IMG/VR virus record: IMGVR_UViG_3300042402_005180
Coordinates: 1-64,000 of that record
Reading direction: 5' to 3' (one strand)
Origin: a virus
DNA: 64,000 nt
Shown one piece after another: positions 1-17,087 of this stretch. Under the pieces are notes generated by a model. It was not told the DNA's origin and searched no databases. It saw nothing but the letters and a program-made list of their open reading frames with translations. The position numbers and the translations under genes were made by a program. Each line of letters starts with the position of its first letter. The first letter of the stretch is position 1.

Positions 1-2
1 TT

Positions 3-206
3 GATGAACTATCTTATTCTAAAAAAGAAAAAGAAAAGCACACTAGCAAAATAGAAAAGATTAACAATGAGAAGAAAGAAAAGGATAAGAAGTCAAATTC
101 TTATTTTGGTAATTTTGATGGTCATGACGGGCATTCCAGCACTCATAGCAAATCTCCTGTCAAAGTAAAAAAAGAGCAAAGTGATTACGAGAGAGGCAAC
201 TTTTAA
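3..206 (+). CDS. 3' end of Lys-rich hypothetical protein (truncated by window start)
   Basis: Frame 3 is open from the window edge to TAA at 204-206 (DELSYSKKEKEK...YERGNF*). Confidence 0.6.
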   Translation, partial: DELSYSKKEKEKHTSKIEKINNEKKEKDKKSNSYFGNFDGHDGHSSTHSKSPVKVKKEQSDYERGNF

Positions 207-233
207 TAACAGTAATCAGCATAGGAAAAGGCG

Positions 234-1079
234 ATGAAAAATCTTAACGATAGAATAAAAGATATTCAAGATGCATTAGAGGAGTCTAATGCATTACAAT
301 ATGGTAAACCATCTAAAAATGATCCTCGTAAAACTCCCGCAAAGCCCGGAGAAAGAAAAAAGGGATCAAAGAAAAATGCTCCAGATTCAGCTAGCAAGCC
401 AAATCCCGATATTAAACAAGGAAAAAATACCACTAATACTCTTTCTTCAATGATGAAAGAACATAATGCAAAAGTTGAAAAAAATAAAAAAGGATTCAAG
501 GCTACTATGGGTCAGCTAAAATCTGTACAAAGAAGAGGAGAAGGAGCTTTTTCAACAAGTCATCACCCCTCAATGGACAGAAGGGGCTGGGGCATTGCTA
601 GAGTAAAAGCATTTTTATATCTTATGTACAACGGAAGACCATCAAATCCTAATTATAAACAGGACAATGATTTACTACCAAAAGATCACCCTAAATCAAG
701 CAAGAAGGCAAAAGCTATGAATATTAAACAACTAGAAGAGGCTTGGGCATCAATAAAAACTAAATCTAGCGAAGATGCAGAAGAAATTACAGAACAAGCG
801 ATAACTATGGCAAAAGGAAGCATCTCTTCATTAAAGAGACATATTGATCCATTAGTTGCAATGATTGCAAATGAAAATATGTCTTTCGCAGAACCTTGGG
901 TTCAGGGTAAACTTACCTTAGCCGACGACTACATTAAGGCGGTTCATGACTATGTAATGTCACAAAAAAATGAAGATAGCGAAGAAGAAGAACCTGAAGA
1001 AGAGGAAGAGCCAGAAGATTCTGAATCGAATAAAATTTATACTGGTGAAGACTTAATGAGAATCAAAAGGAGCAAATAA
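234..1079 (+). CDS. Modular Lys-rich phage protein with DUF5824-like domain and acidic tail; possible internal head protein
   Basis: LKSVQRRGEGAFSTSHHP...WGIARVKAFL resembles the DUF5824 motif; AGGA upstream; TAATG coupling to the next gene. Confidence 0.6.
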   Translation: MKNLNDRIKDIQDALEESNALQYGKPSKNDPRKTPAKPGERKKGSKKNAPDSASKPNPDIKQGKNTTNTLSSMMKEHNAKVEKNKKGFKATMGQLKSVQRRGEGAFSTSHHPSMDRRGWGIARVKAFLYLMYNGRPSNPNYKQDNDLLPKDHPKSSKKAKAMNIKQLEEAWASIKTKSSEDAEEITEQAITMAKGSISSLKRHIDPLVAMIANENMSFAEPWVQGKLTLADDYIKAVHDYVMSQKNEDSEEEEPEEEEEPEDSESNKIYTGEDLMRIKRSK

Positions 1080-1654
1080 TGCCCATTCCAAACAGAAAAA
1101 AAGGTCAGGATGAGAATTCTTTTATGTCAAGTTGCATGAGCAATCCTGCAATGAAAAAAGAATATCCAGACCAAAAGCAGCGTGTAGCAATTTGTATTCA
1201 ACAAAGCAAAGGCGATGATTTGCTTGGAAAGGCAAGTCTTTATATGGAATATGCCGAAGCTGAATGGGATGAAGAATGGGGCGAATTTACTTATGAAGTA
1301 ACAGTTGCAGGAGGAGTGTTCTACGAAGACACTAGAGATAAAACTCTTGATGGTGAAACTCCGCACGAAGGTCTTGGCAAAGATGATAAGGGCAAAGGTA
1401 AAAAAGTCAAATTAAATAAACCTTTTCGTACTCCGGGCGGACCTAAAAAGTTCTCAGTATATGTAAAAAATGAAAAAGGTAACGTAGTTAAAGTAAATTT
1501 TGGCGATCCCAATATGAGTATTAAAAGAGACGACCCAGAAAGACGAAAGTCTTATCGCGCCAGACATAATTGCGATAGTCCCGGTCCAAAATGGAAAGCT
1601 AATTACTGGAGCTGTAAAATGTGGTCTAAAACGAATGTGAGCGATTTAACATAA
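1079..1654 (+). CDS. Modular phage protein (MPIP...QRVAIC N-domain; DUF6321/DUF5754-like C-domain)
   Basis: VNFGDPNMSIKRDDPERRKSYRARHNC...ANYWSCKMW is a motif widespread in large phages. Confidence 0.6.
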   Translation: MPIPNRKKGQDENSFMSSCMSNPAMKKEYPDQKQRVAICIQQSKGDDLLGKASLYMEYAEAEWDEEWGEFTYEVTVAGGVFYEDTRDKTLDGETPHEGLGKDDKGKGKKVKLNKPFRTPGGPKKFSVYVKNEKGNVVKVNFGDPNMSIKRDDPERRKSYRARHNCDSPGPKWKANYWSCKMWSKTNVSDLT

Positions 1655-1663
1655 GGAAATAAT

Positions 1664-2335
1664 ATGTATTCTCAGGAAGCACAGGATGAGTTCGCTTATT
1701 TATTAAATAACAAGCAACCCGGATTTTATTTGGATATTGGTGCTGGAGATGGATTTATGGAACCTAACGGGGGAAATACTCTATTTCTAGAAGAAAATGG
1801 TTGGGATGGAATTTTAATAGAAGGTAGGCTAGATTATTATTTGGCAGGAAAGGATAGAAGAAAAGGTAAATTTGTTCACGCAATGATACCAGATACGCCT
1901 CTGAAGAAAATCCTTGATGACAATAATGCTCCTAAATTAATAGATTATATTTCTATGGATATCGATCCTGTTACATATATCGCATTAGAAAATTTTCCAT
2001 TTGATGATTATGAGTTTAAAATTTTAACTTTTGAGCATGATCTTTATTGTGGAATTTTAAATGATAGCATACATCCAACAGTGCCGAAAGAAGCCTACAT
2101 CGAACAAAAACGCAAATCTCAAGAATTACTCTTCAATAAAGGCTATAGACTTCTTTGCGAAGATGTGAAAGCTGGATTTTGGTATAAGCCGTTCGAAGAT
2201 TGGTGGGTAAATCCAAAATATTTCTCAGAGGCGTTTATTAATTGTAACCAATTCAAAGGAAGACTTGGTGGATATATTGTGGAACATTTGGATCTTACTG
2301 GAGAAATATACAGTAAGCATACGTACAAAGGATAA
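1664..2335 (+). CDS. FkbM-family (Methyltransf_21) SAM methyltransferase
   Basis: GFYLDIGAGDG motif I, NTLFLEENGWDGILIE, IDYISMDID, ILTFEH. Confidence 0.85.
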   Translation: MYSQEAQDEFAYLLNNKQPGFYLDIGAGDGFMEPNGGNTLFLEENGWDGILIEGRLDYYLAGKDRRKGKFVHAMIPDTPLKKILDDNNAPKLIDYISMDIDPVTYIALENFPFDDYEFKILTFEHDLYCGILNDSIHPTVPKEAYIEQKRKSQELLFNKGYRLLCEDVKAGFWYKPFEDWWVNPKYFSEAFINCNQFKGRLGGYIVEHLDLTGEIYSKHTYKG

Positions 2336-2338
2336 TAT

Positions 2339-3127
2339 ATGATATATGATTGCTTTCAATTCTTCAACGAATTCGATGTTGTAGAGATTCGTTTGGAAGA
2401 ACTGTACCCTATTGTTGATAAGTTTGTAATATGTGAATCTACTTTAACTCACAGCAATAAACCAAATGAATTAAAGTTTATGAAACATAAAGATAGATAT
2501 GCAAAATATCTTGATAAGATCACATATATCGTTTATGATTCTTTTCCAGAAAATATAGGTTACTGGACATTAGAAAATGCTCAAAGAAAATATCTATTAT
2601 CTGGAATTGATATGCAAAATCTGAAACCAGATGATATATTAATGATTTCAGATGCAGATGAGATACCTAATAGATCGTTTTTATCGGAATTGTTAAACAG
2701 TTATAATTTTAATCATCCCGTCACTATTTGCCAACAGTTGTATTATAGTAAGTTAACACATAAAGTTATTGAACCATCAATGCATAAAAATTGGGGAGGT
2801 ACAGTAGCCATACCCGGAAAAACATTTAAATATAATCCAGATTTTCAATTCTATAGAAATGGGAAAGATATTGGAGCTAGATTTTTTGATACTGGAAGTT
2901 GGCATTTCTCGTACATGGGAACAACTGAAGATATTAAAAATAAAATACAGTCATTTTGTCACAGCGAATGGGATCAAGAAAGCGTATTAAATAAAATTGA
3001 ATCAAATGTTTCTAGCTGTAGAGACCCATTAGGAAGACCGGAATTTAGACTGGAAAAGGTAGAAATAGATAATACTTATCCAGAATTAGTAAAATCTAAC
3101 CCAGAGAAATTTGAGCATATTATATGA
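2339..3127 (+). CDS. GT17-family (MGAT3-like) beta-1,4-N-acetylglucosaminyltransferase
   Basis: MIYDCFQFFNE...IRLEELYPIVDKFVICES, SDADEIP (DxD), WHFSY, KIQSFCHSE. Confidence 0.88.
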   Translation: MIYDCFQFFNEFDVVEIRLEELYPIVDKFVICESTLTHSNKPNELKFMKHKDRYAKYLDKITYIVYDSFPENIGYWTLENAQRKYLLSGIDMQNLKPDDILMISDADEIPNRSFLSELLNSYNFNHPVTICQQLYYSKLTHKVIEPSMHKNWGGTVAIPGKTFKYNPDFQFYRNGKDIGARFFDTGSWHFSYMGTTEDIKNKIQSFCHSEWDQESVLNKIESNVSSCRDPLGRPEFRLEKVEIDNTYPELVKSNPEKFEHII

Positions 3128-3918
3128 TATACGATTGTTTTCAATTTTTTAATGAATTTGATACTTTAGAAATAAGACTAGAAGAGCTTTATCCTGTTGT
3201 TGATTTATTTGTAATATGTGAATCAACAATGACTCATAGTGGCAAATCAAAGAATTTAAGATATCTTGAAAATTCAAATAGATATAAAAAATATCAAGAT
3301 AAGATAAAGTATATTGTATATGATCAATTTCCTACTCAATATACAAGCTGGATGCTCGAAAACAATCAAAGAAGATTTATGATCACGGCAATACCAACCA
3401 GTATTAAAGATAGTGATTTAGTTTTTATTTCTGATGTTGATGAAATTCCACGAAGATCTTTTATGGAAAAGATAGTAAAGGACCACTATAGGAATAATAG
3501 TATCGCATTCCCAGTAACTCTATGTACTCAGTTATACTATAATAAACTGACATATAAAGTAACAGAACCAGATGAATTTCATAACTGGAGGGGAACTGTT
3601 GTTATAGATGGAAAAACCTTAAAGCAAAATTCAGACTTGCATTGGTATAGACATTACAAGGATACGTTCCCTAATATTAAGAACACTGGATGGCATTTTT
3701 CTTATCTTGGAGATGAAAAGCAGATTATTGAAAAGATAGAATCATTTGCTCACACAGAGAGCGATACACCCGAAATTAAAGAAACGATCAGAAATAATTT
3801 AGATAAGTGTGTCGATTTATTTGGAAGAACTGAATATAAAATGGAGCATGTTGAAGTTGATGATACCTATCCTGAGTTAGTCAAAAACAATATTGAAAGA
3901 TTTAGGCATCTAGTATGA
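3124..3918 (+). CDS. GT17-family glycosyltransferase, tandem paralogue
   Basis: Same motifs (SDVDEIP, GWHFSY, KIESFAHTE); ATGA overlap. Confidence 0.88.
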   Translation: MIYDCFQFFNEFDTLEIRLEELYPVVDLFVICESTMTHSGKSKNLRYLENSNRYKKYQDKIKYIVYDQFPTQYTSWMLENNQRRFMITAIPTSIKDSDLVFISDVDEIPRRSFMEKIVKDHYRNNSIAFPVTLCTQLYYNKLTYKVTEPDEFHNWRGTVVIDGKTLKQNSDLHWYRHYKDTFPNIKNTGWHFSYLGDEKQIIEKIESFAHTESDTPEIKETIRNNLDKCVDLFGRTEYKMEHVEVDDTYPELVKNNIERFRHLV

Positions 3919-4640
3919 AAGTTACATGTGGAAATTATGGCATGGGAGATACTTTACTTATGACTGCGATATGTAAATATTTCCCATTTAAATTTACTAT
4001 CCTACTTCCTAAAGATCAAGAGAAGTTCAAAATTTTTTTTGATAATTTAGCAAAGGTAGAAATAACAGATAATGTGCCATTTGAGATAATGACAAAAAAT
4101 AGCTTGCCTAAGTTGGGAAATGGGCATTATACAACTAGAATGCTCAGGGGGATTTTTGGTAGTTATGGCGATCTAATTGACAATAGACCTCTCGTGATAT
4201 CAAGCAACTTCTCTGCTGATACGTGGACATATGAGTATTTAAAAGACAAACCAAATCCGGTTATAGTATCACCTATGTGTTCCGCGCTTGCTAAAGATAT
4301 TAGAGGAATTTCTGAAAATGATTGCTCTAAAATTATAGAACTGCTTAAAAGAAAAAGATATACTCCAATTTTAATATTGTCATCTTCGTATACTTATGAT
4401 AAGAATATAGCAGAACATGTATTAATAGATCTCGAAATTACAAAATACCTATCTCTTATGAAAAAAGTTGGATTATATTATGGAAGCAATACAGGAGATA
4501 AACACCTAGCAGTTGCAGTAGGAGCAGAGACTCACGTATTTGAGCCGGAAAATCACCCAATGTTCAATCCATCAGAATGGGACTACAATCATCCAACTAT
4601 TAAATACTACAGAGGAAAAGATAAATGGTTTCAATTTTAG
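3915..4640 (+). CDS. GT9-like (heptosyltransferase-type) GT-B glycosyltransferase
   Basis: GMGDTLLMT at the N-terminus; NTGDKHLAVAVG resembles the GT9 DSGPMHLAAA motif. Confidence 0.65.
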   Translation: MKVTCGNYGMGDTLLMTAICKYFPFKFTILLPKDQEKFKIFFDNLAKVEITDNVPFEIMTKNSLPKLGNGHYTTRMLRGIFGSYGDLIDNRPLVISSNFSADTWTYEYLKDKPNPVIVSPMCSALAKDIRGISENDCSKIIELLKRKRYTPILILSSSYTYDKNIAEHVLIDLEITKYLSLMKKVGLYYGSNTGDKHLAVAVGAETHVFEPENHPMFNPSEWDYNHPTIKYYRGKDKWFQF

Positions 4641-4951
4641 TAGATGAAGGATATGCATATGATTATCTTGCTATTTTAATAGTTAAAAATAGTTTTCCAT
4701 TGTCCGATTTTATTTCGGGATATATAGCTGGACAAGTCGGAGGCAAAAAGCATAACGATATTATCACTTCAGAAGAGTTTAAGAATTTGATACAGGTAAA
4801 TAGAGAAACTTTTATTGCGGTGGAAAAAGCACGATATGGAGAGATCTCTGCAAAAGAGGTTGACAATGCCAACATGAAGAGATATAATTCAAAGGTGGAA
4901 CTGCAAAATAAATTTTTTCCAGAATCAAAAGTGACAGAGGTAAAAACTTGA
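4625..4951 (+). CDS. Hypothetical protein in glycosylation cluster (DUF6165-like)
   Basis: Overlapping ORF with GAGG RBS; weak resemblance only. Confidence 0.5.
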   Translation: MVSILVDEGYAYDYLAILIVKNSFPLSDFISGYIAGQVGGKKHNDIITSEEFKNLIQVNRETFIAVEKARYGEISAKEVDNANMKRYNSKVELQNKFFPESKVTEVKT

Positions 4952-5661
4952 AGACGCTAACAATTTCATTATATAATAGACCAAAATACACTGCTACACT
5001 TTTACAACATCTTGATCAGTGCTTTGGCATTGAAGATTATAAAATAACAATTTGTTGCGACCCCGGATCAAAAGAAGTTGAAAAACTAGCTAAAAACTTT
5101 AGACCAAATCAAACTGAAACAATTATAAATAAACGAAGAATGGGATGTAATACTAATATCTACCAGTCGCTTGCAATTGGATTTTCACAAAATGATTATC
5201 ATATTCACTTTGAAGACGATACAATTCCCGGAAAAGATTGTTTGAAATATTTTGAATGGGCAAAACAATTTAGAGATGATTCTAGTCTATTTACGGTTTG
5301 CGGATATGTCACATCGGATAATTTAACAGAACATCACTATCCTAAAAATAATAATACAGATAGAGTATTTCGCAGATGCTGGTTCACTCCTTGGGGCTGG
5401 GCAACATGGAAAAGTAGATTTGATGAGATGGAAAAAGTTTGGGATTTTCAAGGGCGAAATGGCAGTTGGGACGCTACTATAAATCATGTAGCAAGAAAAG
5501 AAAGATGGGAGTTATTCCCAACTATTTCAAGAATACAAAATATTGGTGCTGAAATGGGAACTCATGTTCCAAATTCTGAATGGCATAAACAGCATCATTT
5601 TAACGAGTACTGGATAGAATCAATAAATATGTATACTAATAACTTTAAGGAAATTTTATGA
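4948..5661 (+). CDS. GT-A fold glycosyltransferase (GT2/GT13-like)
   Basis: YNRPKY, HFEDD, FTPWGWATWKSRF, SWD, SRIQNIG motifs. Confidence 0.8.
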   Translation: MKTLTISLYNRPKYTATLLQHLDQCFGIEDYKITICCDPGSKEVEKLAKNFRPNQTETIINKRRMGCNTNIYQSLAIGFSQNDYHIHFEDDTIPGKDCLKYFEWAKQFRDDSSLFTVCGYVTSDNLTEHHYPKNNNTDRVFRRCWFTPWGWATWKSRFDEMEKVWDFQGRNGSWDATINHVARKERWELFPTISRIQNIGAEMGTHVPNSEWHKQHHFNEYWIESINMYTNNFKEIL

Positions 5662-6239
5662 ATATAGTACAAGTTGGATGTAATCATGGCGATGATCACG
5701 TTTTCCATTATATTAAATCTAATAAAAATGCAATTAAAAATGCATATTTAATAGAACCTATGAAATCCGCTTTGAATATGGCGGTAAATCATTATAGTGG
5801 ATTTGAAAATGTACACTTCTTTAATATTGCCATAACAGAAGATCCAAATAAAAAAGAATTAGAATTATTTATGCCAGCAAATGAAGTAAGATGCGAAGCC
5901 ACTTCAGTCAAGAGAGAACATGTTGTAATGCATGTTAAGCATCAAGATATCATATCATTTACGGTTCCAGCAATGACTATTAATGATTTTTTCGATAGTC
6001 AAAATTTAAAAATAATTGATAGATTATATATTGATACAGAAGGTCTTGATTGTGATATAGTGAATACCATTGATCTTGATAAATATGATATTAAAAGAAT
6101 ACAATTTGAACACATCCATGCTGAGTTTTCATTAAGTTTTGGCAATAGTATATTATATAATAATATATTATCTAAACTAACAAAAGCGGGGTACACTTTA
6201 ACTACAAGTGGATTTGATACAATAGCTGAAATAAGTTAA
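5658..6239 (+). CDS. FkbM-family methyltransferase
   Basis: IVQVGCNHG, LIEP, NIAIT, IDRLYIDTEGLD, IQFEH. Confidence 0.85.
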   Translation: MNIVQVGCNHGDDHVFHYIKSNKNAIKNAYLIEPMKSALNMAVNHYSGFENVHFFNIAITEDPNKKELELFMPANEVRCEATSVKREHVVMHVKHQDIISFTVPAMTINDFFDSQNLKIIDRLYIDTEGLDCDIVNTIDLDKYDIKRIQFEHIHAEFSLSFGNSILYNNILSKLTKAGYTLTTSGFDTIAEIS

Positions 6240-6288
6240 TTGTGTAATATTATATAGTGTCAAATATTTTTATATAGGAGAGTTTCAA

Positions 6289-6462
6289 ATGAAAAAAAAT
6301 TATATAGACGCAATGAGTGGATACGCAGAAGCCGAAAAGCCCGGATTATGGGAAAATATCCAAAAGAAAAAGCAGCGAGAAGGCAAAAACTATAAACCGG
6401 CAAAGCCGGGAGACCCTGATCGTCCAGACCCTGAAGCGTTGAAAAAAGCACAATCTTCATAA
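6289..6462 (+). CDS. Small basic protein, 57 aa (absent from ORF track)
   Basis: GGAG at 6277-6280; MKKNYIDAMSGYAEAEKPGLWENIQKKKQREGKNYKPAKPGDPDRPDPEALKKAQSS*; the PGLWxNI motif is typical of small phage proteins. Confidence 0.8.
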   Translation: MKKNYIDAMSGYAEAEKPGLWENIQKKKQREGKNYKPAKPGDPDRPDPEALKKAQSS

Positions 6463-6471
6463 AATCTTCAC

Positions 6472-6499
6472 TTGACTTTTGATTATTCAGTGTTATAAT
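6472..6499 (+). promoter_or_regulatory. Sigma70-type promoter
   Basis: TTGACT-16-TATAAT with TGn extension. Confidence 0.65.
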
Positions 6500-6510
6500 A
6501 ATGTTGTCGA

Positions 6511-6541
6511 AGGGCGACGAATAGAGTCGCCTCTTTATTTT
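6511..6541 (+). terminator. Probable intrinsic terminator
   Basis: GGCGAC/GTCGCC stem followed by TCTTTATTTT. Confidence 0.5.
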
Positions 6542-6571
6542 AATAGAATTAATTCACTTCTATTGAATTAT

Positions 6572-6582
6572 TGTGTATAGTA
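6572..6582 (+). promoter_or_regulatory. Phage-specific promoter motif TGTGTATARTA
   Basis: TGTGTATAGTA just upstream of AAGGAG RBS and ATG 6606; motif recurs 6 times in sense orientation. Confidence 0.6.
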
Positions 6583-6605
6583 TAACAAGCGAAAGGAGCT
6601 TTAAA

Positions 6606-7331
6606 ATGCTAACACAAAAAGATATCGAAGATGTAATTAATAGTGAAAACTCTATTGTGGATTTCTGTAAATCTAAAAATATTTCAAAAAGAACATTTTA
6701 TAACTATATGAATAAATATGGTATTAAAAATTCTAAAAATAAAAATTCAAAAAATAAAATTAAATCTACAATTGGAAATAAGTATAATCGCTGGACAGTA
6801 TTAAACTATATAGGAGATACAGAAACTTCAAATGGTATATTAAACTGTAAATGCGAATGTGGCACTGAACAAAATGTAAGATATTATGACTTAATTTCTG
6901 GACAAACTAAAGGCTGCAACTCATGCTCTAGAATTGAAAGAAGTAAAAATTGTGGAAAGTATGAACGAAAATATGGAAAAGAAAATCATAGCTTTAAAGG
7001 TTATGAAAAGATATCTGGTCACTACTGGTCAGTAGTTAAAAATAGAGCAAAAAAAAGAGGTAATGAGCTTTCTATATCTATAGAATATGCGTATGAAATA
7101 TTAAAAAAACAAAATTTTAAATGCGCAATAAGTGGAATAGATATTTATTTACCACAAATAGACAATAAAAAATGGACCGCAACATTAGATAGAATAGATT
7201 CTGCAAAAGGTTATATCGAAGGTAATGTGCAATGGTTGCATAAAGATATTAATACTATGAAATGGGCGTTTAGTCAAGAGCAATTTCTTAATTATTGCAG
7301 AATAATAGTGGAGAATAATAAAAGTGATTAA
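6606..7331 (+). CDS. Free-standing HNH-like homing endonuclease (HTH + CxCxCG zinc module + LDRIDS..GY..GNVQW nuclease domain)
   Basis: [10 protein letters not shown]...CKCECG...GCNSC; CAISG...[27 protein letters not shown]; start moved to ATG 6606 after AAGGAG. Confidence 0.75.
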
Positions 7332-8445
7332 AAACAAAAATGTTCGTCGTGGATTTTCTCTAATTGAGCTGTTAGTAACTATTTCAATTATCGCTGTATT
7401 AATCAGTCTTCTTCTTCCGGCTGTACAATCAGCAAGAGAAGCGGCTCGAAGATCTCAGTGTGTTAATAATCTCAAGCAAATCGGACTAGCGGCACACAAC
7501 TTTGAAAGTATTAGAGGAACACTTCCACGATCAGGCGAACATAATCTTCCGGTAAACTCTCAAGTTTATAAAACCCAAGATTATCATAGTACGTTCACAA
7601 TGATTCTTGGAACAATTGAGCAAGGTAATGTATATAATCAATTCAATCTACAGCTACCTTATAATTTTGCAGGGAACACAACAGCAACTAATACAATGAT
7701 TGCGACATTCTTGTGTCCAACAAATGCCTTGTCATCAGATAGAAACAATGGAAAAGACAGCGTTGGATTTGGATGTATTGACTATGCAACAGCCCCGTAT
7801 ACGGAAATCATGGCAAATGGAACGACAAAGTGGCAAACTGGATATGTATCTCCAGTTCCTATGGATGGTCCACTAACTGGCAGTCCTTACCCAGTATCAG
7901 CCTATACAGTATTTAATTGCTCTAGCTGCTCTAGCATTAAAACTTATCAGATCGACCCTAGTAAAGTAATTTCAGGAGCAGTCGATATTTTTCAAGGCGT
8001 ACCAATTTCAGCAACTACAGATGGCACTTCTAACACTGCTATGTTTTATGAAGACACGGGCAGAAGTCCAAAAATGCAAGGAACTGGAAATTACTCAATG
8101 CCTACCACTGATTACTTGCCAGACTTGAACGCTCCCGCTCCTTATGTTGCTGGGGCAAGACGTAGCTGGCGATGGGGCGATCCAGATAATGCTGCTGGCG
8201 TATCTAGCGGTATTAATAATAATAGAAATGGATCATTTAGTCAAATTAGTTGCGGAGGAACTGCAACATGGTCAACTCACGACTGCGGACCAAACAATGA
8301 AATCTTTAGCTGGCATCCGGGCGGAGCAAATATCTGTATGTCAGATGGCAGTGTAAGATTTGTAAAAGAAACAGCATCAACTTCTGTAGTTAGATCTTTG
8401 ATTACAAGAGCTGGTGGAGAAGTAATTTCCGCAGATTCTTATTGA
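7324..8445 (+). CDS. DUF1559 / prepilin-type N-terminal cleavage-methylation protein with H-X9-DG C-terminal motif
   Basis: RRG|[50 protein letters not shown]; FLCPT; [17 protein letters not shown]. Confidence 0.95.
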
Positions 8446-8469
8446 CATAAAGACGAAACCTGTTATAAT
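8442..8469 (+). promoter_or_regulatory. Consensus sigma70 promoter
   Basis: TTGACA-16-TATAAT with TGn. Confidence 0.8.
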
Positions 8470-8502
8470 AGAGCTATCCAGAATTGGGTAGCTCTTTTTT
8501 TT
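8470..8502 (+). terminator. Intrinsic terminator
   Basis: AGAGCTATCCA-GAAT-TGGGTAGCTCT stem plus T tract. Confidence 0.85.
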
Positions 8503-8875
8503 GGAGAAAACAATGGTAGAATTTTTATTGCAGAATGAAATATTTGTATTTGGTAGTAATACTGAAGGTAGGCACGGTGCTGGGGCAGCTAAAACCGCTA
8601 TGATGTGGGGTGCAAAATACGGACAAGCTAAGGGGCGGCAGGGCCAGACATACGCTATAATAACTAAAGATTTACAAAAGGGGTTTGTGGGATGGGATTA
8701 TGTACGAGAACAATTAGTAGAGCTAATAAAATACGCCCATATACACGATGATCTTATCTTCCTGTTAACTCCTCTTGCAACTGGTTTTGCCGGTCAAACA
8801 ATTGAAGATCTAGAAGATAATATTAAAGATCTTTATTTTCCAGACAATATTATCAAAATTTGGCAGAATGATTAA
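8501..8875 (+). CDS. A1S_2505-family macro-domain-like phage protein
   Basis: NEIFVFGSNTEGRHGAGAAKTA...GQTYAI...FLLTPLATGFAG; true start is probably ATG 8513 after GGAG. Confidence 0.8.
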   Translation: MEKTMVEFLLQNEIFVFGSNTEGRHGAGAAKTAMMWGAKYGQAKGRQGQTYAIITKDLQKGFVGWDYVREQLVELIKYAHIHDDLIFLLTPLATGFAGQTIEDLEDNIKDLYFPDNIIKIWQND

Positions 8876-8910
8876 ACGTGCGATAAGCACAAGAAAAAGG
8901 AGAAAAAGCA

Positions 8911-9408
8911 ATGTCGTGGACAATTAATGACGTTAAAATCTTTGCTCAAAAAGCTCACAGTGGACAAAAACGATGGAGCGGAGCAGATTACTACGAAGAT
9001 CACATTTTAAAAGTATATGAAAATACTAAAAAATTTCTTGATGATAATCGTGCAGATCTTGATTTGTATTTTGAAACTTACCAGATTAATGAATCTGACG
9101 TATTGGCAGCTGCACTTCTTCATGACACAATTGAAGATACAGACGTAACTTTTCAAGAACTTGTAGATGTTTTCAATTCAAATGTAGCAACTATTGTTAG
9201 ATTATTAACACATGAAAAAAATGTAGATTATGCAGAATATATCTTTAATCTAATTGATTGTTCTATTCCAGAAAAATTAGCTGCATGTATCATAAAAATT
9301 GCCGACTTGCAGCATAATTGTTTAAATTTTCCAAATGGTAAACCTAAATATTCAATATATCTTCTTTCAAAAAGATTGTTGGAAAATTTTCTTACTGATT
9401 GTTTATAA
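8911..9408 (+). CDS. HD-domain (p)ppGpp-hydrolase-like protein (small alarmone hydrolase type)
   Basis: AQKAHSGQKR.SG..Y...H, AALLHDTIEDT, LLTH, IKIADLQHN match the RelA/SpoT hydrolase (HD_4) pattern. Confidence 0.85.
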   Translation: MSWTINDVKIFAQKAHSGQKRWSGADYYEDHILKVYENTKKFLDDNRADLDLYFETYQINESDVLAAALLHDTIEDTDVTFQELVDVFNSNVATIVRLLTHEKNVDYAEYIFNLIDCSIPEKLAACIIKIADLQHNCLNFPNGKPKYSIYLLSKRLLENFLTDCL

Positions 9409-9411
9409 ATA

Positions 9412-10491
9412 ATGAAAGAGAAAAATATTATGATTTTGCAATGTCCAATTAATAGTCTTGGCTATGGTGTAGCCGGATATAATATCGCAAAACAACTAGT
9501 AAAATCTGGGGAAGACGTAGCTATTTTTCCTATTGGAGATCCTGAACCTGAGTTATATCAAGATTTACAAAAATATGACTGGCGAATAAAGAATATTTTA
9601 GACTGTAGAAATAAAACTACGTCTATTAAAATCTGGCATCAAAATCAACTCCATGAAAGAGTTGGCAATGGAACTCAAATTGGATTTCCTATTTTTGAAT
9701 TAAATAAATTTACGCTACAAGAAAAGCGAAGTATGATGTTTTGCGACAAAATCTTCGTTTGTTCAAAGTGGGCAAAAGGTGTTATTCAGGACCAGATAAG
9801 CATTCCAGATGAAATGATAGATGTCGTTCCTCTTGGTGTTGATCGTTCCATTTTTAATGAAAATAATAATGTAGCAAGAAAGCCAACAGTATTTTTTAAT
9901 TGTGGTAAGTGGGAAATTAGAAAAGGACATGATGTTCTTCTAAAGTGTTTTGAAGCAGCGTTCACAAAAGATGACGATGTTGAGCTTTGGCTTTTATGTG
10001 AAAATCCATTTATTAATCAAATTAATGAACAATGGAACAATTATTACAAAAATTCCAAGTTAGCTAATAAGATTAAAATTTTACCACGACAAAAATCACA
10101 TCAAAATGTGTATAATATAATGAGACAAATTGATTGTGGTGTTTTTCCTGTTAAGGCAGAGGGATGGAATCTTGAACTTCTTGAATTGCTATCCTGTGGA
10201 AAACATGTGATTACAACAAATTATTCGGGCCACACAGAATTTACAAATACAGAAAATTCATATTTGATTGAAATAGATAAACTTGAACCGGCTCATGATG
10301 GAATCTGGTTTCATGGACAAGGTGAATGGGCTGCATTTGAGGATAGACAAATCGAACAAACGGCAAATTATATGAGAGAAATTCATAATAAAAAAGTAAA
10401 CAATCAACTACAAAATAATTTAGCAGGAATTGAAACTGCAATTAAATTTTCATGGGAAAATACAGCGAAGGAGATCTTAAATGGGCTTTGA
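9412..10491 (+). CDS. GT4-family glycosyltransferase
   Basis: VVPLGVD, GKWEIRKGHD, EGWNLELLE, ITTNYSGHTEF. Confidence 0.9.
   Translation: MKEKNIMILQCPINSLGYGVAGYNIAKQLVKSGEDVAIFPIGDPEPELYQDLQKYDWRIKNILDCRNKTTSIKIWHQNQLHERVGNGTQIGFPIFELNKFTLQEKRSMMFCDKIFVCSKWAKGVIQDQISIPDEMIDVVPLGVDRSIFNENNNVARKPTVFFNCGKWEIRKGHDVLLKCFEAAFTKDDDVELWLLCENPFINQINEQWNNYYKNSKLANKIKILPRQKSHQNVYNIMRQIDCGVFPVKAEGWNLELLELLSCGKHVITTNYSGHTEFTNTENSYLIEIDKLEPAHDGIWFHGQGEWAAFEDRQIEQTANYMREIHNKKVNNQLQNNLAGIETAIKFSWENTAKEILNGL
10107..10117 (+). promoter_or_regulatory. Phage-specific promoter motif inside the GT4 gene
   Basis: AATGTGTATAATATAATGA at 10105-10123 is an exact 19-nt match to the - strand element at 46245-46263. 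Confidence 0.55.
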
Positions 10492-11410
10492 AACTCCAGA
10501 AGATATTTTAAAAGAATATGATAATGGCTTAAAGGGTGCAGTTTGCGATTCTAAAGATATGGCAGCATTAATGGAAGAGTTGCCAAGACCGCTATTTAGC
10601 AGTTTTGGTAATGATATATACGGAACAGGAAAAGGTACTCTTTCATTGCCGTATAAAGCAATTCAACATTTCTTTCCTCTCTTTGGAGAAGATGAAAGAC
10701 AAACAACTGGCGACTGTGTAAGTCATGCTGCAAGAAACGCTATTGATATTACGAGATGCTATGAGATTCTTTACAAAGGCGATAAAGAAGTATTCGTAGC
10801 AAGAGGAGCAACAGAGCCAATCTATGGATGTAGAGGTCACGGTGGACAAGGAATGTACTGCTCTCAAGCCGCAAGATTTGTTAGCTTAACAGGTGGATTC
10901 TTAGCAAGACAAAAATATGATAAGATTGACTTGTCTGTTTATAATGCTGGTCTTGGAACAGCGTGGGGTTCCAAAGGTATTCCAAAATCAATTCTTGAAA
11001 ATTGCAACAAGCATAAAATTAAAACAGCTACAGCGGTAACTTCAGTTGAACAAGCAAGAGACTTGCTTGCAAATGGTTATGCACTTTCCGTTTGCTCTGA
11101 TCTTGGGTTCTCTTCTGTCAGAGATAAGTACGGTATTGCTGAAGTGCAAGGATCATGGGCACATGCTATGGCATGGATTGCTTGCGATGATACATATGAA
11201 AGATTAAACGAAACTTTATTCTTAGTTCAAAATAGTTGGGGCAAATGGAATAGCGGTCCAAAGTTTCATAATCAACCAGAAGGAAGTTTTTGGATTAGAC
11301 AAAGTGTTGCTGAAAAAATGCTTGCCGCTGGTGCTGCTTTTGCGTACAGTAATTTTGACGGATTTGTTAGAAAAATGGTTTGGGATAGAATAAAAGAGGT
11401 ATATGCATGA
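10481..11410 (+). CDS. Papain-like (C1 family) cysteine peptidase
   Basis: Q..GDCVSHA (oxyanion Gln, catalytic Cys), AHAM (His), VQNSWG (Asn). Confidence 0.85.
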   Translation: MGFETPEDILKEYDNGLKGAVCDSKDMAALMEELPRPLFSSFGNDIYGTGKGTLSLPYKAIQHFFPLFGEDERQTTGDCVSHAARNAIDITRCYEILYKGDKEVFVARGATEPIYGCRGHGGQGMYCSQAARFVSLTGGFLARQKYDKIDLSVYNAGLGTAWGSKGIPKSILENCNKHKIKTATAVTSVEQARDLLANGYALSVCSDLGFSSVRDKYGIAEVQGSWAHAMAWIACDDTYERLNETLFLVQNSWGKWNSGPKFHNQPEGSFWIRQSVAEKMLAAGAAFAYSNFDGFVRKMVWDRIKEVYA

Positions 11411-11781
11411 AAAAGATACAATTATTAATAATGGGATTGATTGGATTTTCATTAGCAGTTGTTTATAATGACTATTCCAATTCTCAAAAAGAACTTGCCG
11501 CATATGGCAATAGAGACGTAGAAACTGAATTAAAAAATACTGTTGATAGGGCAAATCTTGTGCTTGAAACAGTAGAAAAAATGTATATAAAAAAAGAAGC
11601 TCCAAAGCCTGAGCCTAAGCCAGAGCCGAAGCCTCAGCCTAAGCCAGAACCAAAGCCAAAGCCAGCCTGTGAATGCAATGGAACAAAAGTACTAGTGCAG
11701 CCCGATGGGAATAGAGTGTACTGTCCTTGTACAAACTCTGCCGAGGGATGTAAATGCAAAAGCACAGGAGAGGAGCAATGA
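11407..11781 (+). CDS. Membrane-anchored or secreted protein with PKPE linker and Cys-rich tip
   Basis: N-terminal hydrophobic segment; (PKPE)n; CECNG...PDG...CPC...CKC. Confidence 0.75.
   Translation: MKKIQLLIMGLIGFSLAVVYNDYSNSQKELAAYGNRDVETELKNTVDRANLVLETVEKMYIKKEAPKPEPKPEPKPQPKPEPKPKPACECNGTKVLVQPDGNRVYCPCTNSAEGCKCKSTGEEQ
11601..11665 (+). repeat. 12-bp-period coding tandem repeat (PKPE/PKPQ)
   Basis: CCAAAGCCTGAGCCTAAGCCAGAGCCGAAGCCTCAGCCTAAGCCAGAACCAAAGCCAAAGCC. Confidence 0.8.
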
Positions 11782-12125
11782 GTACAGAAGTAGATAACTT
11801 TGCTTGTGAGATAGCAAGAGATCTTCCAAGCCAAGATGGCAAATATTCTTTTGATTTAAGTTTAATAGTAATAATCGGCTCTATTATAATTAACACCTTA
11901 CAACTGCTAATTAAATGCAATGTCTTTTCTTCTAATTTAAGTGCAAAAGTAAAAAATCCCGGAATGGTAGAAAAGGCTATGCTTGCACGAACAATTAAAA
12001 ATAAAGTCCCAAAAGAGTATATGCATTTAAGAGAAGAGATTAAAAATACGATAATAGATAAGATCAAAGATCTACCAGAAGACAAAATAAATTCAATGAT
12101 AACGGAGGTAAAAAATGCAAGATAA
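11778..12125 (+). CDS. Hypothetical protein with hydrophobic segment
   Basis: AGGAG RBS, ATGA overlap at 11778; FDLSLIVIIGSIIINTLQLL. Confidence 0.7.
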   Translation: MSTEVDNFACEIARDLPSQDGKYSFDLSLIVIIGSIIINTLQLLIKCNVFSSNLSAKVKNPGMVEKAMLARTIKNKVPKEYMHLREEIKNTIIDKIKDLPEDKINSMITEVKNAR

Positions 12126-12303
12126 ATTAAAAGCAATGATACAATCCAGAAGATTTTGGATTGCAGTATCTGGGATTTTAGCAGTGATAAGTAATGACTT
12201 GGGAATTACAGATATGACTCCTGAGCAAATTCAGAACGTAACAATACTATTAGCTAGTTGGATTTTAGGAGATTCAATTAGAGAAACCGGAGGAACACTA
12301 TGA
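12115..12303 (+). CDS. Holin-like two-TM protein
   Basis: 62 aa; SRRFW..TM..TM..ILGDS pattern typical of small phage holins; GGAGG RBS. Confidence 0.6.
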   Translation: MQDKLKAMIQSRRFWIAVSGILAVISNDLGITDMTPEQIQNVTILLASWILGDSIRETGGTL

Positions 12304-12593
12304 GTTTATTTCAAATTTTACTACTATGTATGGCAGGTCTAGTAATTCTTTCATCTATCTCTATCGATTTTAAAGTTATAAGGGATAACTTGCCAAAGCC
12401 AAGCGATAAGAAAGATAAGCCGGAGGACGTAAAAATTAAACCAGTTATAGAGCCAGATCATGCTCAAGATAGTTTACTTCTTATTGTTAATAAGTGGCAG
12501 TGCTTAAAAGACGCTTGCGATAAAAATAATTTAACGGCAGCGTCAGCTAAACTTGATGAAATTTTTCCAATGCTAATTGAGGTTAAAAAATGA
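12300..12593 (+). CDS. N-terminally anchored membrane protein
   Basis: MSLFQILLLCMAGLVILSSISI followed by a Pro/Lys linker. Confidence 0.7.
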   Translation: MSLFQILLLCMAGLVILSSISIDFKVIRDNLPKPSDKKDKPEDVKIKPVIEPDHAQDSLLLIVNKWQCLKDACDKNNLTAASAKLDEIFPMLIEVKK

Positions 12594-13057
12594 AAAAAGG
12601 TAGAATTGCATTAGCTCTAGCATTAGTTGCGGCAGCTTTTTTATATGATTATTTACCATCAAAAAAGCCTAGCTTGCCAACTACAAATTATAGCAAGTAT
12701 TTAAACTTAACAAAGCCAAGTGATAGCGTTCTTGAAGAATTAAAGGACCTCAAGGATATCGTGTCCGGCCCCAATGAAGTTATTGACAGAGAGCTTATTG
12801 CCGTTTTCAATAATGAAATGGGGAAAAGAATTGAAAAATATGATAATGTAAATACTTTGACATTTGAAAATTATTATTACGATGCAGGAAAAATGTATTT
12901 TGAGGGAAGAATAGCAAAGAAGTATAATGGCTTAAGCGACAAGGTTTATAAAGTAATCTTGTCAACACTTGGCGATAACGAATCATATATTAAAAACGAA
13001 GAGTTTAAAAATTTATCAGAAAAAATGAAAGGAATTGCTTGGGTTTTACTAAATTAG
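12590..13057 (+). CDS. Signal-anchored exported protein
   Basis: MKKGRIALALALVAAAFLY. Confidence 0.7.
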   Translation: MKKGRIALALALVAAAFLYDYLPSKKPSLPTTNYSKYLNLTKPSDSVLEELKDLKDIVSGPNEVIDRELIAVFNNEMGKRIEKYDNVNTLTFENYYYDAGKMYFEGRIAKKYNGLSDKVYKVILSTLGDNESYIKNEEFKNLSEKMKGIAWVLLN

Positions 13058-13059
13058 GC

Positions 13060-13087
13060 TTGACACTTGGCGGGATCGTGCTATAAT
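13060..13087 (+). promoter_or_regulatory. Consensus sigma70 promoter
   Basis: TTGACA-16-TATAAT with TGn; AAGGAG RBS downstream. Confidence 0.8.
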
Positions 13088-13109
13088 ACTATTAAACGTC
13101 CCGCCTTTT
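13069..13109 (+). terminator. Hairpin terminator interleaved with the promoter
   Basis: GGCGGGA (13069-75) / TCCCGCC (13099-105) plus TTTT. Confidence 0.55.
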
Positions 13110-13123
13110 AAAAGGAGCTTAAT

Positions 13124-13498
13124 ATGGAAAATAATTACGAAGTTGTAGTTAGCTTAATTTGTATTTTCTATGATAAACAATATAATCAAACAGATCCAAA
13201 TTACATAAAAATACTTTTAGATGAAAAAAAAGTTATAAATAAAAAAATTAGCATTTTTCATAAAGATATAAAAAATTGTATAGAAGAATTGTTTTCTGAA
13301 TACATAAAAATAAATTATGAATGGCCCTCAAAAGAATTAGTATCGTGTAGAAAAATAGACAATAAGATAGAAATAACGTACATAACATCAATGCCTTTTA
13401 TTAATGGTTCTCTAAAAAAAGGCAGTTTATATAATATCACCGATTTTATTAATATAATACAGGATAATTACTATGCCGAATCAATCACCAGAGCCTGA
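13124..13498 (+). CDS. Hypothetical protein
   Basis: ORF with AAGGAG RBS. Confidence 0.7.
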   Translation: MENNYEVVVSLICIFYDKQYNQTDPNYIKILLDEKKVINKKISIFHKDIKNCIEELFSEYIKINYEWPSKELVSCRKIDNKIEITYITSMPFINGSLKKGSLYNITDFINIIQDNYYAESITRA

Positions 13499-13793
13499 AA
13501 GTTCTGAGGAGTTTTCTCCAAAGTCCTTTATTATATTTTGCTTAGATGAAACAGGGAATGTTGCATTAGAGCTATCTTGGGGCGAAAAAGAAGAAGATAT
13601 TAAAAAGTTTGCAGCACTGTTAAATAAGATAAATACTGGCTACTTTAATCAAATGATAGTTGATCAATTAAAAGAACAGTCTAAAACCCAAACTAATGGA
13701 AGTAAAAACTATTCAATCTTCAATAAATCTTATAAAAATTTAAATAAGCCCAAAAATCTAGTAGTAGACCCTACAAGCGTGGAGCTAAATTAA
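13473..13793 (+). CDS. Hypothetical protein
   Basis: Coupled ORF in operon. Confidence 0.7.
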   Translation: MPNQSPEPESSEEFSPKSFIIFCLDETGNVALELSWGEKEEDIKKFAALLNKINTGYFNQMIVDQLKEQSKTQTNGSKNYSIFNKSYKNLNKPKNLVVDPTSVELN

Positions 13794-14209
13794 TGAAAAA
13801 AATAATGTGGGAAAACTGGAATGAAAAAGAAAAAGAACTACTTGAGCCAGCTCAAGATCCATTTTTATTACCAAATGATATAGATAATGAAGAACAAAAT
13901 GAAATAGAGCAATTATTATCTTCTTCGTCAATGTTATCTCCAATGATTGATTTTCAACAACCAATTATTCATACTCCATTTGGAGTTGTTCCATCTGATT
14001 CAGTTTTAAAGCCTTCAGATAGATGGGAATGCTGGATGGGATATACTAATTTTGACTTAACTCATCAAGTATCAGATAAAATAAAGGTAATAAATGGTGT
14101 AGAAGCATTGAAGATAATGAGCAGATACACATTTTGTGTTGGGGTTGGTAAAATGTTTCAATTTACAAGTGTCAGGAAGGAAATAGAGAATGCAATTTGT
14201 AAGCAATAA
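13793..14209 (+). CDS. Hypothetical protein
   Basis: TAATG coupling; W-rich conserved-looking C-terminus (WMGYTNFDLT...SRYTFCVGVGKMF). Confidence 0.7.
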   Translation: MKKIMWENWNEKEKELLEPAQDPFLLPNDIDNEEQNEIEQLLSSSSMLSPMIDFQQPIIHTPFGVVPSDSVLKPSDRWECWMGYTNFDLTHQVSDKIKVINGVEALKIMSRYTFCVGVGKMFQFTSVRKEIENAICKQ

Positions 14210-14726
14210 AAAATTTAAAGAAGCTGTTGATAATGAATTTTATAAAAAGATCATGAGCAAAGTTTGTAGAGAAAATTTAAAAGGAGTTTGTACAAAAGAA
14301 GAAATGAATTCAATTATGATGACAACTTTACTAGATTGCTTGCAAAAGTTTGATAAGTCTAAAAATGTAAAATTTTCATCTTATTTATATAGAAGTTTAC
14401 AAAATAACACCAGAAGAATATATAAAAAGAAGTCCAAAGAGTTTAGCAACCAAGAATTTATAGAAAATTGCCATAGTATTGTAGATGAAAACTTTAAAAA
14501 TAAAGAAGAAGTAAGAGACATTCTTATGTCTTTAGAAGATATAAATAAAGAATTACATCAAATTATTATTCAAAAATTTTATTATGGAATGACAAATAAA
14601 GAGATTGGTCAAAAAAACGGCTATGGAAAAGAAGCGGCTCGAAAAAAAGTTAAAAAAGCCATCGAATTGTGCCAAGAAATTGTGTATAGTAATATGGGAA
14701 AAGGAACTTTAGCATCAGGACAATAG
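14190..14726 (+). CDS. Phage RNA polymerase sigma factor (sigma70 regions 2 and 4)
   Basis: LLDCLQKFDKSKNVKFSSYLY (region 2); IIIQKFYYGMTNKEIGQKNGYGKEAARKKVKKAI (region 4 HTH). Confidence 0.8.
   Translation: MQFVSNKKFKEAVDNEFYKKIMSKVCRENLKGVCTKEEMNSIMMTTLLDCLQKFDKSKNVKFSSYLYRSLQNNTRRIYKKKSKEFSNQEFIENCHSIVDENFKNKEEVRDILMSLEDINKELHQIIIQKFYYGMTNKEIGQKNGYGKEAARKKVKKAIELCQEIVYSNMGKGTLASGQ
14681..14691 (+). promoter_or_regulatory. Phage-specific promoter motif
   Basis: TGTGTATAGTA about 75 nt upstream of ATG 14766. Confidence 0.6.
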
Positions 14727-14765
14727 GAAATTAAGATTAAAACCATAAAAGTGAGGTAAATAGCT

Positions 14766-15404
14766 ATGGTTCCAAATCAGTCAGTTAATCCGTATTTAAA
14801 TAATACAGCGGGTAGCACCTATACAGCTCAGAGACAAGGTGGTACTATCGTTGGTTTAACTTCTGCTACAACGATAATTACAAAAGCAATTCTAGTTAAA
14901 GATATCAACACAAACGATATCACAAACGACACCCTTCCAAAAGTATCTTCAGGTGCAAAAGCATACAATACAGCCAAGATTCTTTCTGCTGGAACTTTTG
15001 CATACAACGCTGCAAAGAATGGAACATGGGTATTAACTCGTGTTACAACAACTCTTGCTGGCGTTTCAAAAACTTTCTTACAGTCTATGGCGAATGTTGG
15101 ATACGCTCCATCATTAGCTTATTATGTAAGAAATAACTGGGTTGATACAACCAGTTTAATCCGCAAAATGCAACTTAGCTTTACTGGCTATGATGCTTCT
15201 GGTTCAGGTTATGCTGGAAAGATTAAAGCCAGAACACCTTGGATCACAAGTCCAACTGCTACTGCTGGTACAGACTTTGGTACTTCATCATCTTTACCAA
15301 GCAGAGCTTATCCGGGCGAATTGTACATCTTAACAAACTTTATTGATTACAAACCAGCTACAAGCTCAAATAAATATTACTATTCTCCAATTACTGGTAA
15401 GTGA
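14766..15404 (+). CDS. Probable virion structural protein (Thr/Ala/Ser/Gly-rich)
   Basis: Composition; GAGG RBS; own promoter motif and terminator. Confidence 0.55.
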   Translation: MVPNQSVNPYLNNTAGSTYTAQRQGGTIVGLTSATTIITKAILVKDINTNDITNDTLPKVSSGAKAYNTAKILSAGTFAYNAAKNGTWVLTRVTTTLAGVSKTFLQSMANVGYAPSLAYYVRNNWVDTTSLIRKMQLSFTGYDASGSGYAGKIKARTPWITSPTATAGTDFGTSSSLPSRAYPGELYILTNFIDYKPATSSNKYYYSPITGK

Positions 15405-15423
15405 TTTCCTTTATTATTAAGTT

Positions 15424-15452
15424 GGGGTCGGGGAATCCCGGCCCCTTTTTTT
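15424..15452 (+). terminator. Intrinsic terminator
   Basis: GGGGTCGGG-AAT-CCCGGCCCC plus T8. Confidence 0.9.
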
Positions 15453-15468
15453 AGGAGTATATCATATT

Positions 15469-15903
15469 ATGAGTAGTTTATTTAACTGGCATGAAGCATT
15501 ACCAAATATTGGAGATTTCTTTAATAAAGTTGGATTTCCAATGGGCGTATGGTTGGTAACAGTATTTATATTGTATAAACTATTTTATACCATTGGTTAT
15601 AAAGCATTGTCTAAATTATGGAATAAAGTAGAGCCAATAATGGATGCGCACTTTGAACTAGTAACTAGTATGAAAGATAATCTTTCAAAGCAAACTGAGA
15701 TTATGAGTGCAACAAATGTTCTTATTGAAACTAAACTTGATAAGCATACAATAATTTTAGAAGATCATAGCAAAGCTCTTGATAGGATGCTTAAAATGAG
15801 TGAAAAAAGAAATGAACTTCTTGAGCAAAATGGCTCAACTAAGAAATTAAAACCATCGCCCTCAAATAATGGATCGGTAGGAAATATTCATGGGACTAAA
15901 TGA
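15469..15903 (+). CDS. Membrane protein with coiled coil
   Basis: VGFPMGVWLVTVFILY TM segment followed by heptads; AGGAG RBS. Confidence 0.65.
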   Translation: MSSLFNWHEALPNIGDFFNKVGFPMGVWLVTVFILYKLFYTIGYKALSKLWNKVEPIMDAHFELVTSMKDNLSKQTEIMSATNVLIETKLDKHTIILEDHSKALDRMLKMSEKRNELLEQNGSTKKLKPSPSNNGSVGNIHGTK

Positions 15904-16075
15904 TAAAATCATAGAAATTTTGCTTAAACAGTTTAATTTTTCTCAGGCCGACCTTGACAAAGTGAAGGCGGTACTGGATAATATAAATGTAAAAACGGTT
16001 GATGGCAAAACCTACATTGAAATCAGGGTAAACAAAGTAACAGTCGTATTAGAAGGCAATCAGAATGAATCTTAA
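15890..16075 (+). CDS. Hypothetical protein
   Basis: Coupled ORF. Confidence 0.6.
   Translation: MGLNDKIIEILLKQFNFSQADLDKVKAVLDNINVKTVDGKTYIEIRVNKVTVVLEGNQNES
15954..15982 (+). promoter_or_regulatory. Possible sigma70 promoter
   Basis: TTGACA-17-GATAAT upstream of the nucleotide-metabolism genes. Confidence 0.45.
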
Positions 16076-16409: not shown

Positions 16410-16419
16410 TTTAAAGGAC

Positions 16420-17084: not shown

Positions 17085-17087
17085 TAA

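Follow-up and report, generated by a model that had tools for sequence, protein, structure and literature searches.

A DUF1559 prepilin-like gene of planctomycete origin in low-G+C lake phages, and its possible link to host phosphate starvation

The pstS gene and other genes of cyanophages respond to the host PhoBR system (PMC10976474, citing earlier work on phage P-SSM2). Here we describe a phage locus with a comparable arrangement, a prepilin-like gene of the DUF1559 family at 7324-8445 of the window, that is, of the whole 64,000-nucleotide stretch analysed, which is the first 64 kb of the 77.7-kb IMG/VR record IMGVR_UViG_3300042402_005180 (CheckV completeness 52%). Like the cyanophage pstS and phoA genes, it would be a host-derived gene of the phosphate-starvation set in a lytic phage, placed behind a tandem repeat of the PhoB-site type through which its expression could follow host phosphorus status; it differs from them in encoding a pilin-like protein instead of a known phosphate transporter or phosphatase, in having a probable planctomycete host, and in the half-site, AATCTTCA, of its putative regulatory site.

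Other described systems offer further comparisons. Planctomycete genomes abound in DUF1559/SBP_bac_10 proteins (PF07596), with 68 in Planctopirus limnophila and 74 in Rhodopirellula baltica. The phage protein shares their prepilin leader, DUF1559 domain and H-X9-DG motif (TIGR04294) and is an orthologue of one conserved single-copy lineage, whereas its gene is phage-encoded, uses phage codons and sits in a self-contained cassette of promoter, hairpin, gene and terminator. GspG/PulG and the type IV pilins have in common with it the class III signal, with Phe+1 and Glu+5, and resemble its predicted model in a long N-terminal helix that lies against a C-terminal beta sheet, but it is about 2.5 times larger, ~250 residues being inserted between this helix and the final strands. 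Phages often use pilus subunits as receptors, and some are known to shut down type IV pili once infection has begun, for instance by Pseudomonas phage proteins that inhibit PilB. Those pilus-ATPase inhibitors resemble the present gene in being early phage genes that could change host pilus-type structures; they are small, phage-specific and unrelated to pilins, whereas here we find a near-unaltered copy of a host pilin-like protein.

Our proposal, which we regard as evenly poised between right and wrong, is an auxiliary gene acquired from the phosphate-starvation set of the host, analogous to cyanophage pstS, with a product that would be processed by the host prepilin peptidase.

A host-derived prepilin-like gene under purifying selection

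The gene (forward strand, as are the HNH gene and the parts of the cassette described below) starts with GTG and encodes 373 residues. Pfam PF07596 (DUF1559/SBP_bac_10) matched residues 35-350 at E = 3.3e-40 and 139.3 bits (cut-off 23.3), covering positions 1-264 of the 268 in the model, and the NCBIfam H-X9-DG family TIGR04294 matched residues 328-348 (39.7 bits, cut-off 19). PF07963 N_methyl (E = 2.6e-7, 30.4 bits, cut-off 21.2) and NCBIfam TIGR02532 (29.3 bits, cut-off 16.3) marked a class III (prepilin) leader peptide of 10 residues (7324-7353), with predicted cleavage after Gly10. All features of such a signal were present: a short basic leader ending in Gly at -1, then Phe at +1 and Glu at +5 (the leader is followed by FSLIELLV), and a hydrophobic stretch of ~20 residues. 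The H-X9-DG motif (H331...D341 G342; 8314-8349) lies within the C-terminal beta strands, and its H331, D341 and G342 were unchanged across 116 relatives. The original prediction, made from the letters of the DNA, of a DUF1559 pilin-like protein with an intact class III signal and an H-X9-DG end was thus upheld by family matches above their cut-offs.

An AlphaFold2 model of the protein (predicted local distance difference test, 87.3; predicted template-modelling score, 0.86) shows residues 13-64 as a helix and residues 72-85 and 334-348 as strands, with a large insert in between; the predicted mature N-terminus, with its hydrophobic segment and long alpha-1 helix, spans residues 11-64 (7354-7515). 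Foldseek found no match with E < 0.001 in PDB or BFVD. Exhaustive structural alignment gave 29 matches at Z >= 2, all weak (best Z 4.2), of which 26 were pilins or pseudopilins and none was a binding-protein chain, a missing match that leaves room for the two-lobed binding-protein fold implied by the name SBP_bac_10. At the sequence level, solved pilins in PDB matched the N-terminal part only, the match in PHROGs was confined to the N-terminal pilin signal, and the GspG equivalog model (TIGR01710) reached 30 bits against a cut-off of 88.85, over residues 9-69 only. Peptidase_A24 was found neither in this contig nor in a related phage of 155 kb that is rated 100% complete, and each host genome searched had one or two, consistent with the predicted dependence of the protein on a host prepilin peptidase.

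Copies of the gene occur on 11 other viral contigs, at 72-80% protein identity. The protein search returned a tight group at 69-97% identity, followed by a drop to ~50% (Paludisphaera and other Isosphaeraceae). We considered and rejected an all-phage clade as the explanation of this tight group: contig L013, one of its members, has 52% G+C and bacterial neighbours, and the tree mixes phage and host sequences. L013 comes from a 3.4-Mb lake metagenome-assembled genome (MAG) with at least 34 DUF1559 matches and the same 52% G+C in its remainder; its orthologue, 74% identical to the phage protein, is flanked by YcjX-like and DUF697 genes. Each of seven related genomes of lake planctomycetes has the orthologue once (73-75% identity; the runner-up reaches 55%), among at least 34-66 DUF1559 paralogues. 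In the phylogeny (model LG+G4), the phage copies formed one clade (ultrafast bootstrap/Shimodaira-Hasegawa-like approximate likelihood ratio test 100/99), sister to the orthologues of host genomes G001, G002 and G009 (95/91), with the remaining host orthologues branching outside. The phage clade is therefore nested in the host orthologue clade, which indicates a single host-to-phage capture from within this lineage.

The likely host belongs to the planctomycete clade of these lake MAGs. The RpoB of G002 was 88% and 78% identical to proteins labelled Isosphaeraceae bacterium, 77% to that of Singulisphaera, 66-68% to those of two Pirellulales and 91% to that of host genome G008. A planctomycete host had been predicted from the window itself; that prediction gains support and is narrowed to the seven lake MAGs with the 73-75% orthologue, with RpoB nearest Isosphaeraceae. 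Two of the MAGs, LE-05nov19-313 and MsH-30jul19-150 (G001 and G002), carry the label Candidatus Kuenenia stuttgartiensis; these labels look wrong, because the RpoB of G002 is nearest Isosphaeraceae and both genomes have dozens of DUF1559 genes.

When the first 20 kb of the window was compared with host DNA, the DUF1559 gene was the sole matching stretch, with no spacer-like or other host match outside it (window 1-20000), and host paralogues matched the phage DNA only at the N-terminal hydrophobic and helical part. No other protein of the host locus had a match in the phage. A two-gene capture was tried as an explanation and rejected, the 124-residue open reading frames (ORFs) 3' of the gene in phage and host being unrelated. 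Three host genomes (G001, G009 and G002) have a small lipoprotein gene 3' of the orthologue (L013:6233-6607; also on L108 and L109), with lipobox GCGSK and a C-terminal KSKGKAKAK tail, and the phage is without it.

The gene in the phages is under strong purifying selection. The ratio of nonsynonymous to synonymous divergence (dN/dS) was 0.02-0.07 in unsaturated phage pairs (dS 0.17-0.59), against 0.04-0.11 in host pairs; between the two phage subclades synonymous sites were saturated, with dN/dS at most 0.12. Phage and host copies are told apart by only 4 of the 373 columns (I77V, T106Q, C117A/G and M208Y), and the numbers of variable columns in the two groups are nearly the same (166 against 165). 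Because so few columns differ and the constraints are near-identical, the phage copy probably keeps the original host function. Codon usage has meanwhile moved to that of the phage, as the original prediction had noted: G+C at third codon positions (GC3) is 0.26, within the 0.16-0.29 of neighbouring phage genes, with a whole-gene G+C of 40.5% against 33% for the window.

The promoter cassette and its direct repeat

Upstream of the gene lies a Pho-box-like direct repeat, AATCTTCA-taa-AATCTTCA (6452-6470), two 8-mers at an 11-bp period that end 1 nt before the -35 hexamer of a sigma-70-type promoter, TTGACT-16-TATAAT with an extended -10 TG (6472-6499; 11 of 12 consensus positions). The window has six sigma-70-like promoters, against 0.28 expected, and the motif was lacking at the other five. 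In the transcript's 5' leader, a terminator scan placed a hairpin and, behind it, a U-rich tail (6512-6532). Every relative has the same cassette order of direct repeat, TTGACA-17-TATAAT, hairpin, ribosome-binding site and ATG. Across all phage relatives AATCTTCA-N3-AATCTTCA, the -35 and the -10 are invariant, and the promoter spacer and flanks vary; the conserved block starts exactly at the repeat, with three different sequences upstream of it among the relatives. The leader hairpin stands at the same place in the relatives, directly before the ribosome-binding site and ATG of the DUF1559 gene, with a stem that differs by compensatory changes (GGGCGAC/GTCGCC against GGACATC/GGTGTCC, in relatives including L003:360-385) and a U-rich tract following; it may serve as a stabiliser, an attenuator or a terminator of upstream transcripts.

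The motif recurs in the hosts. The pattern DATCTTSANNNRWTHTTCA had one exact match in the 77.7-kb contig, the repeat at 6452-6470, and none for its reversed control; ten host-clade genomes together had 15 exact matches, again with none for the control. A stricter form of the pattern gave 5 matches only, without clear Pho genes. Four host orthologues (G001, G009, G008 and G006) have the repeat, with 0-2 mismatches, ~150-170 nt upstream of the start. Their layout matches that of the phage, with 1 nt between the motif and a weak -35 and 17 nt between the -35 and the -10. Other intergenic matches precede an abhydrolase-pstS-pstC-pstA-pstB operon, where the repeat lies 11 nt before the -10; the motif there does not stand directly upstream of pstS, being one gene further up, at the start of the operon. 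It also precedes genes for OmpR-type regulators whose best family is PhoB (TIGR02154), one of them directly after pstB, and in the cultured Tautonia sp. JC769 it is 58 nt upstream of a pstS-type gene. Further intergenic matches were at an NYN-domain gene and at the DUF1559 orthologue itself. In six genomes, the clearest intergenic matches are those at pst operons and at genes for PhoB-like regulators that adjoin pst genes or lie near them.

One 19-mer occurrence deserves separate mention: Tundrisphaera lichenicola (G066) has TTTCTTCACCTGTTCTTCA three times (C1:2064887, 2134360 and 3198504), and the two copies examined (L236 and L239) lie 225 nt upstream of a 288-residue ORF without a Pfam match; these could be a repeated gene or element that carries the motif.

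In the window, a gene for an HNH homing endonuclease (6573-7331; phrog_3322, E = 1.5e-25, and phrog_374) sits between the promoter cassette and the DUF1559 start. Its ORF is overlapped by the DUF1559 gene by 8 nt, such that the GTG start overlaps the HNH stop codon, with GGAG 10 nt before the GTG. Because all 11 related loci are without the HNH gene (no tblastn match), it is a local insertion, incidental to the DUF1559 gene. The overlap behind a shared promoter, given as coupling in the original prediction, stands, and the HNH gene is not a functional partner. An HD-domain gene at 8911-9408 was likewise found in none of the 11 related viral contigs, and both genes appear to have been inserted recently, at intergenic sites beside promoters.

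The cassette closes with an intrinsic-terminator-like hairpin found by the terminator scan, an 11-bp stem followed by T8 (8470-8503, the hairpin itself at 8470-8495), and in the relatives a hairpin and T-run occupy this position, with stems of different sequence. The terminator had been predicted, and the picture is now amended by a perfect promoter for the next gene, TTGACA-16-TATAAT with TG (8442-8469), that overlaps the DUF1559 stop and abuts the hairpin. Transcripts from it would start inside the 5' arm of the hairpin and so escape termination, a compact overlap of terminator and promoter.

What the captured gene may do for the phage

We envisage the following sequence. An ancestor of the ~150-kb low-G+C lake phages would have captured, once, one DUF1559 gene and its promoter region from an Isosphaeraceae-like planctomycete, a host whose phosphate-starvation (Pho) gene set appears to include the orthologue. 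In infected cells the near-consensus promoter of the cassette would be read by the host sigma-70 RNA polymerase, here yielding an HNH-DUF1559 bicistron, and in a phosphate-starved host PhoB would raise expression through the retained PhoB-type direct repeat. The preprotein would enter the cytoplasmic membrane, to be cleaved behind Gly10 and methylated at Phe11 by the host prepilin peptidase. Once mature, the protein, a pilin core into which a globular part of ~250 residues is inserted, would do the job of the host orthologue, in the envelope or in a type II secretion or type IV pilus-like fibre; most likely this job is to help capture a phosphorus source, supplying phosphorus for phage DNA synthesis. 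A role in the phosphate-starvation response is suggested by the retained motif, and we favour a phosphate-linked auxiliary gene because the phage and host copies are under near-identical constraints and the motif has been kept.

Several observations weigh against this proposal. To our knowledge, no biochemical function has been established for any DUF1559 member, and the fold search showed a weak pilin core (Z at most 4.2) without a clue to ligand binding. The motif was not seen within 260 nt of the G002 orthologue and is only partial at those of G004 and G005; some of its matches precede unrelated genes (NYN, kdpA and Hsp20), and in five genomes searched for it pstS was not a neighbour of the orthologue. 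The PhoB-like regulators score 248-250 bits against a curated NCBIfam cut-off of 296. Compared with its place in the pst promoter, the phage motif is shifted upstream by about one helical turn, and the full consensus -35/-10 promoter of the phage should fire without an activator. What the phage gene shares with the host pst and phoB promoters is an upstream site recognised by likeness of sequence, and the putative links from motif to PhoB and from gene to phosphorus have the same basis. For a cyanophage, prediction of Pho boxes from sequence only is reported to have been unreliable (PMC10976474).

Some of these points would suit a general envelope auxiliary gene unrelated to phosphate, one acting in macromolecule uptake, secretion or membrane organisation, with the direct repeat serving as the site of a different OmpR-family regulator or as an UP-like promoter element. 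Two DUF1559 paralogues are essential in P. limnophila (PMC10632474), and paralogues in R. baltica respond to several stresses (PMC2754498). The activator-independent promoter, the motif matches before non-Pho genes such as kdpA, and the lack of the motif at most other DUF1559 genes of IMG/VR phages fit as well. Two features count against it: the clearest intergenic matches are those at pst operons and at PhoB-like genes near pst, and the 8+3 tandem layout of the motif is typical of PhoB-family sites. We consider a phosphate-unrelated role unlikely.

We judge similarly improbable that the gene serves superinfection exclusion or receptor control, the phage copy altering, capping, blocking or retracting a surface fibre that would include the host orthologue and be a receptor for this or competing phages, and so stopping adsorption to infected cells and debris. 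The use of pilus subunits as receptors and the shutdown of type IV pili by other phages give it precedent, an early-type host promoter drives the gene, and in the complete 155-kb relative it is the sole pilin-like gene. There is also the cysteine conserved in host orthologues that all phage copies have lost (C117, now A or G). A decoy or poison subunit should, however, diverge at assembly or exposed surfaces, whereas just the four columns listed above separate phage from host, variable columns are equally frequent in the two groups, and dN/dS is no higher than that of the host copies. Interference with pili would moreover leave the retention of a pst/phoB-type repeat unexplained, and we found no evidence that the protein forms an exposed fibre.

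A bacterial-phage assembly chimera, which the original prediction had named as one possible refutation, or a recently acquired passenger without function in the phage might be suspected from the lone host-DNA match and a G+C somewhat above that of the neighbours, but we set it aside as scarcely credible given 11 independently assembled viral contigs from different samples with the gene at the same position, GC3 shifted to phage values, low dN/dS between synonymous-saturated subclades, and conservation of promoter, hairpin and terminator.

Among the functions that the original prediction had listed (superinfection exclusion, receptor masking, adhesion and nutrient capture), we favour phosphate capture over pilus interference, because the phage copy has barely changed and its motif is common to pst and phoB promoters.

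The phage lineage and DUF1559 genes in other viral DNA

The window belongs to a low-G+C phage contig. Phage-type genes on the contig include those for a ribonucleotide reductase, a UvsX-like recombinase, a DnaB-like helicase, a primase, glycosyltransferases and PhoH, together with a weak tape-measure match, and the window has no tRNAs. The survey of related phage contigs suggested with the original prediction found the DUF1559 gene at the same syntenic place throughout: in 11 of 11 related viral contigs it heads the same conserved block, running from DUF1559 through a 124-residue phrog_2072 protein, a glycosyltransferase and a 309-residue protein to ribonucleotide reductase. The 5' flank of this block differs among the contigs. 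In the window, a variable island upstream of the cassette (2339-6239) holds two GT17-like glycosyltransferases, an FkbM-type methyltransferase and further ORFs, and only part of it is common to relatives. Elsewhere, the DNA polymerase is split into two ORFs (31522-33006 and 34966-36555) that match successive halves of phrog_405 and are separated by ~2 kb of other genes. The PhoH-like gene (20340-21035; PF02562, E = 7.6e-67) is of a kind that many phages carry, and the motif had no match upstream of it.

Beyond this lineage, IMG/VR held 267 stretches encoding DUF1559. Among the best 73 other loci (L150-L222), 61 had 30-41% G+C, on contigs of up to 355 kb, and their DUF1559 genes belong to other paralogue clades, at 27-45% identity. 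One such second phage clade, 34-36% identical, has 3-4 tandem copies of WTTCTTCA at an 11-bp period 60-130 nt upstream of the DUF1559 gene (L155, L161, L163, L191 and L153; for example TTTCTTCAtaaTTTCTTAAaaaTTTCTTCAcatATAATTCA), a half-site that is the same as that of the window motif; most other phage-borne DUF1559 genes in IMG/VR were without the motif. Capture of DUF1559 genes by low-G+C phages, sometimes with the motif, thus looks recurrent, and the hosts of these many viral contigs are presumably planctomycetes. A tblastn search of INPHARED (cultured or deposited phages) gave no match to the window protein, and we found nothing in the literature searched on DUF1559 with phage, on planctomycete phages, or on phosphate starvation with Planctomycetes and pseudopilin. 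Of a wider form of our proposal we are more doubtful, finding it possible that this DUF1559 lineage is a phosphate-starvation-induced envelope or fibre component for phosphorus capture, and that large low-G+C lake phages have repeatedly captured such genes with their Pho boxes.

DUF1559 is the largest paralogous family in planctomycete genomes. The near-unchanged orthologue together with the pst/phoB-type motif yields a testable phosphate-scavenging hypothesis with a single gene to test, and the gene phylogeny ties uncultured lake phages of ~150 kb to a defined planctomycete clade. If the hypothesis is true, the gene would represent a new class of phage phosphorus-acquisition gene, one that uses a pilus-type machine in place of a transporter or phosphatase; its confirmation would extend host-controlled phosphate helper genes of the cyanophage type to another phylum and another kind of protein. 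It would also offer a first testable clue to the function of the large DUF1559 family.

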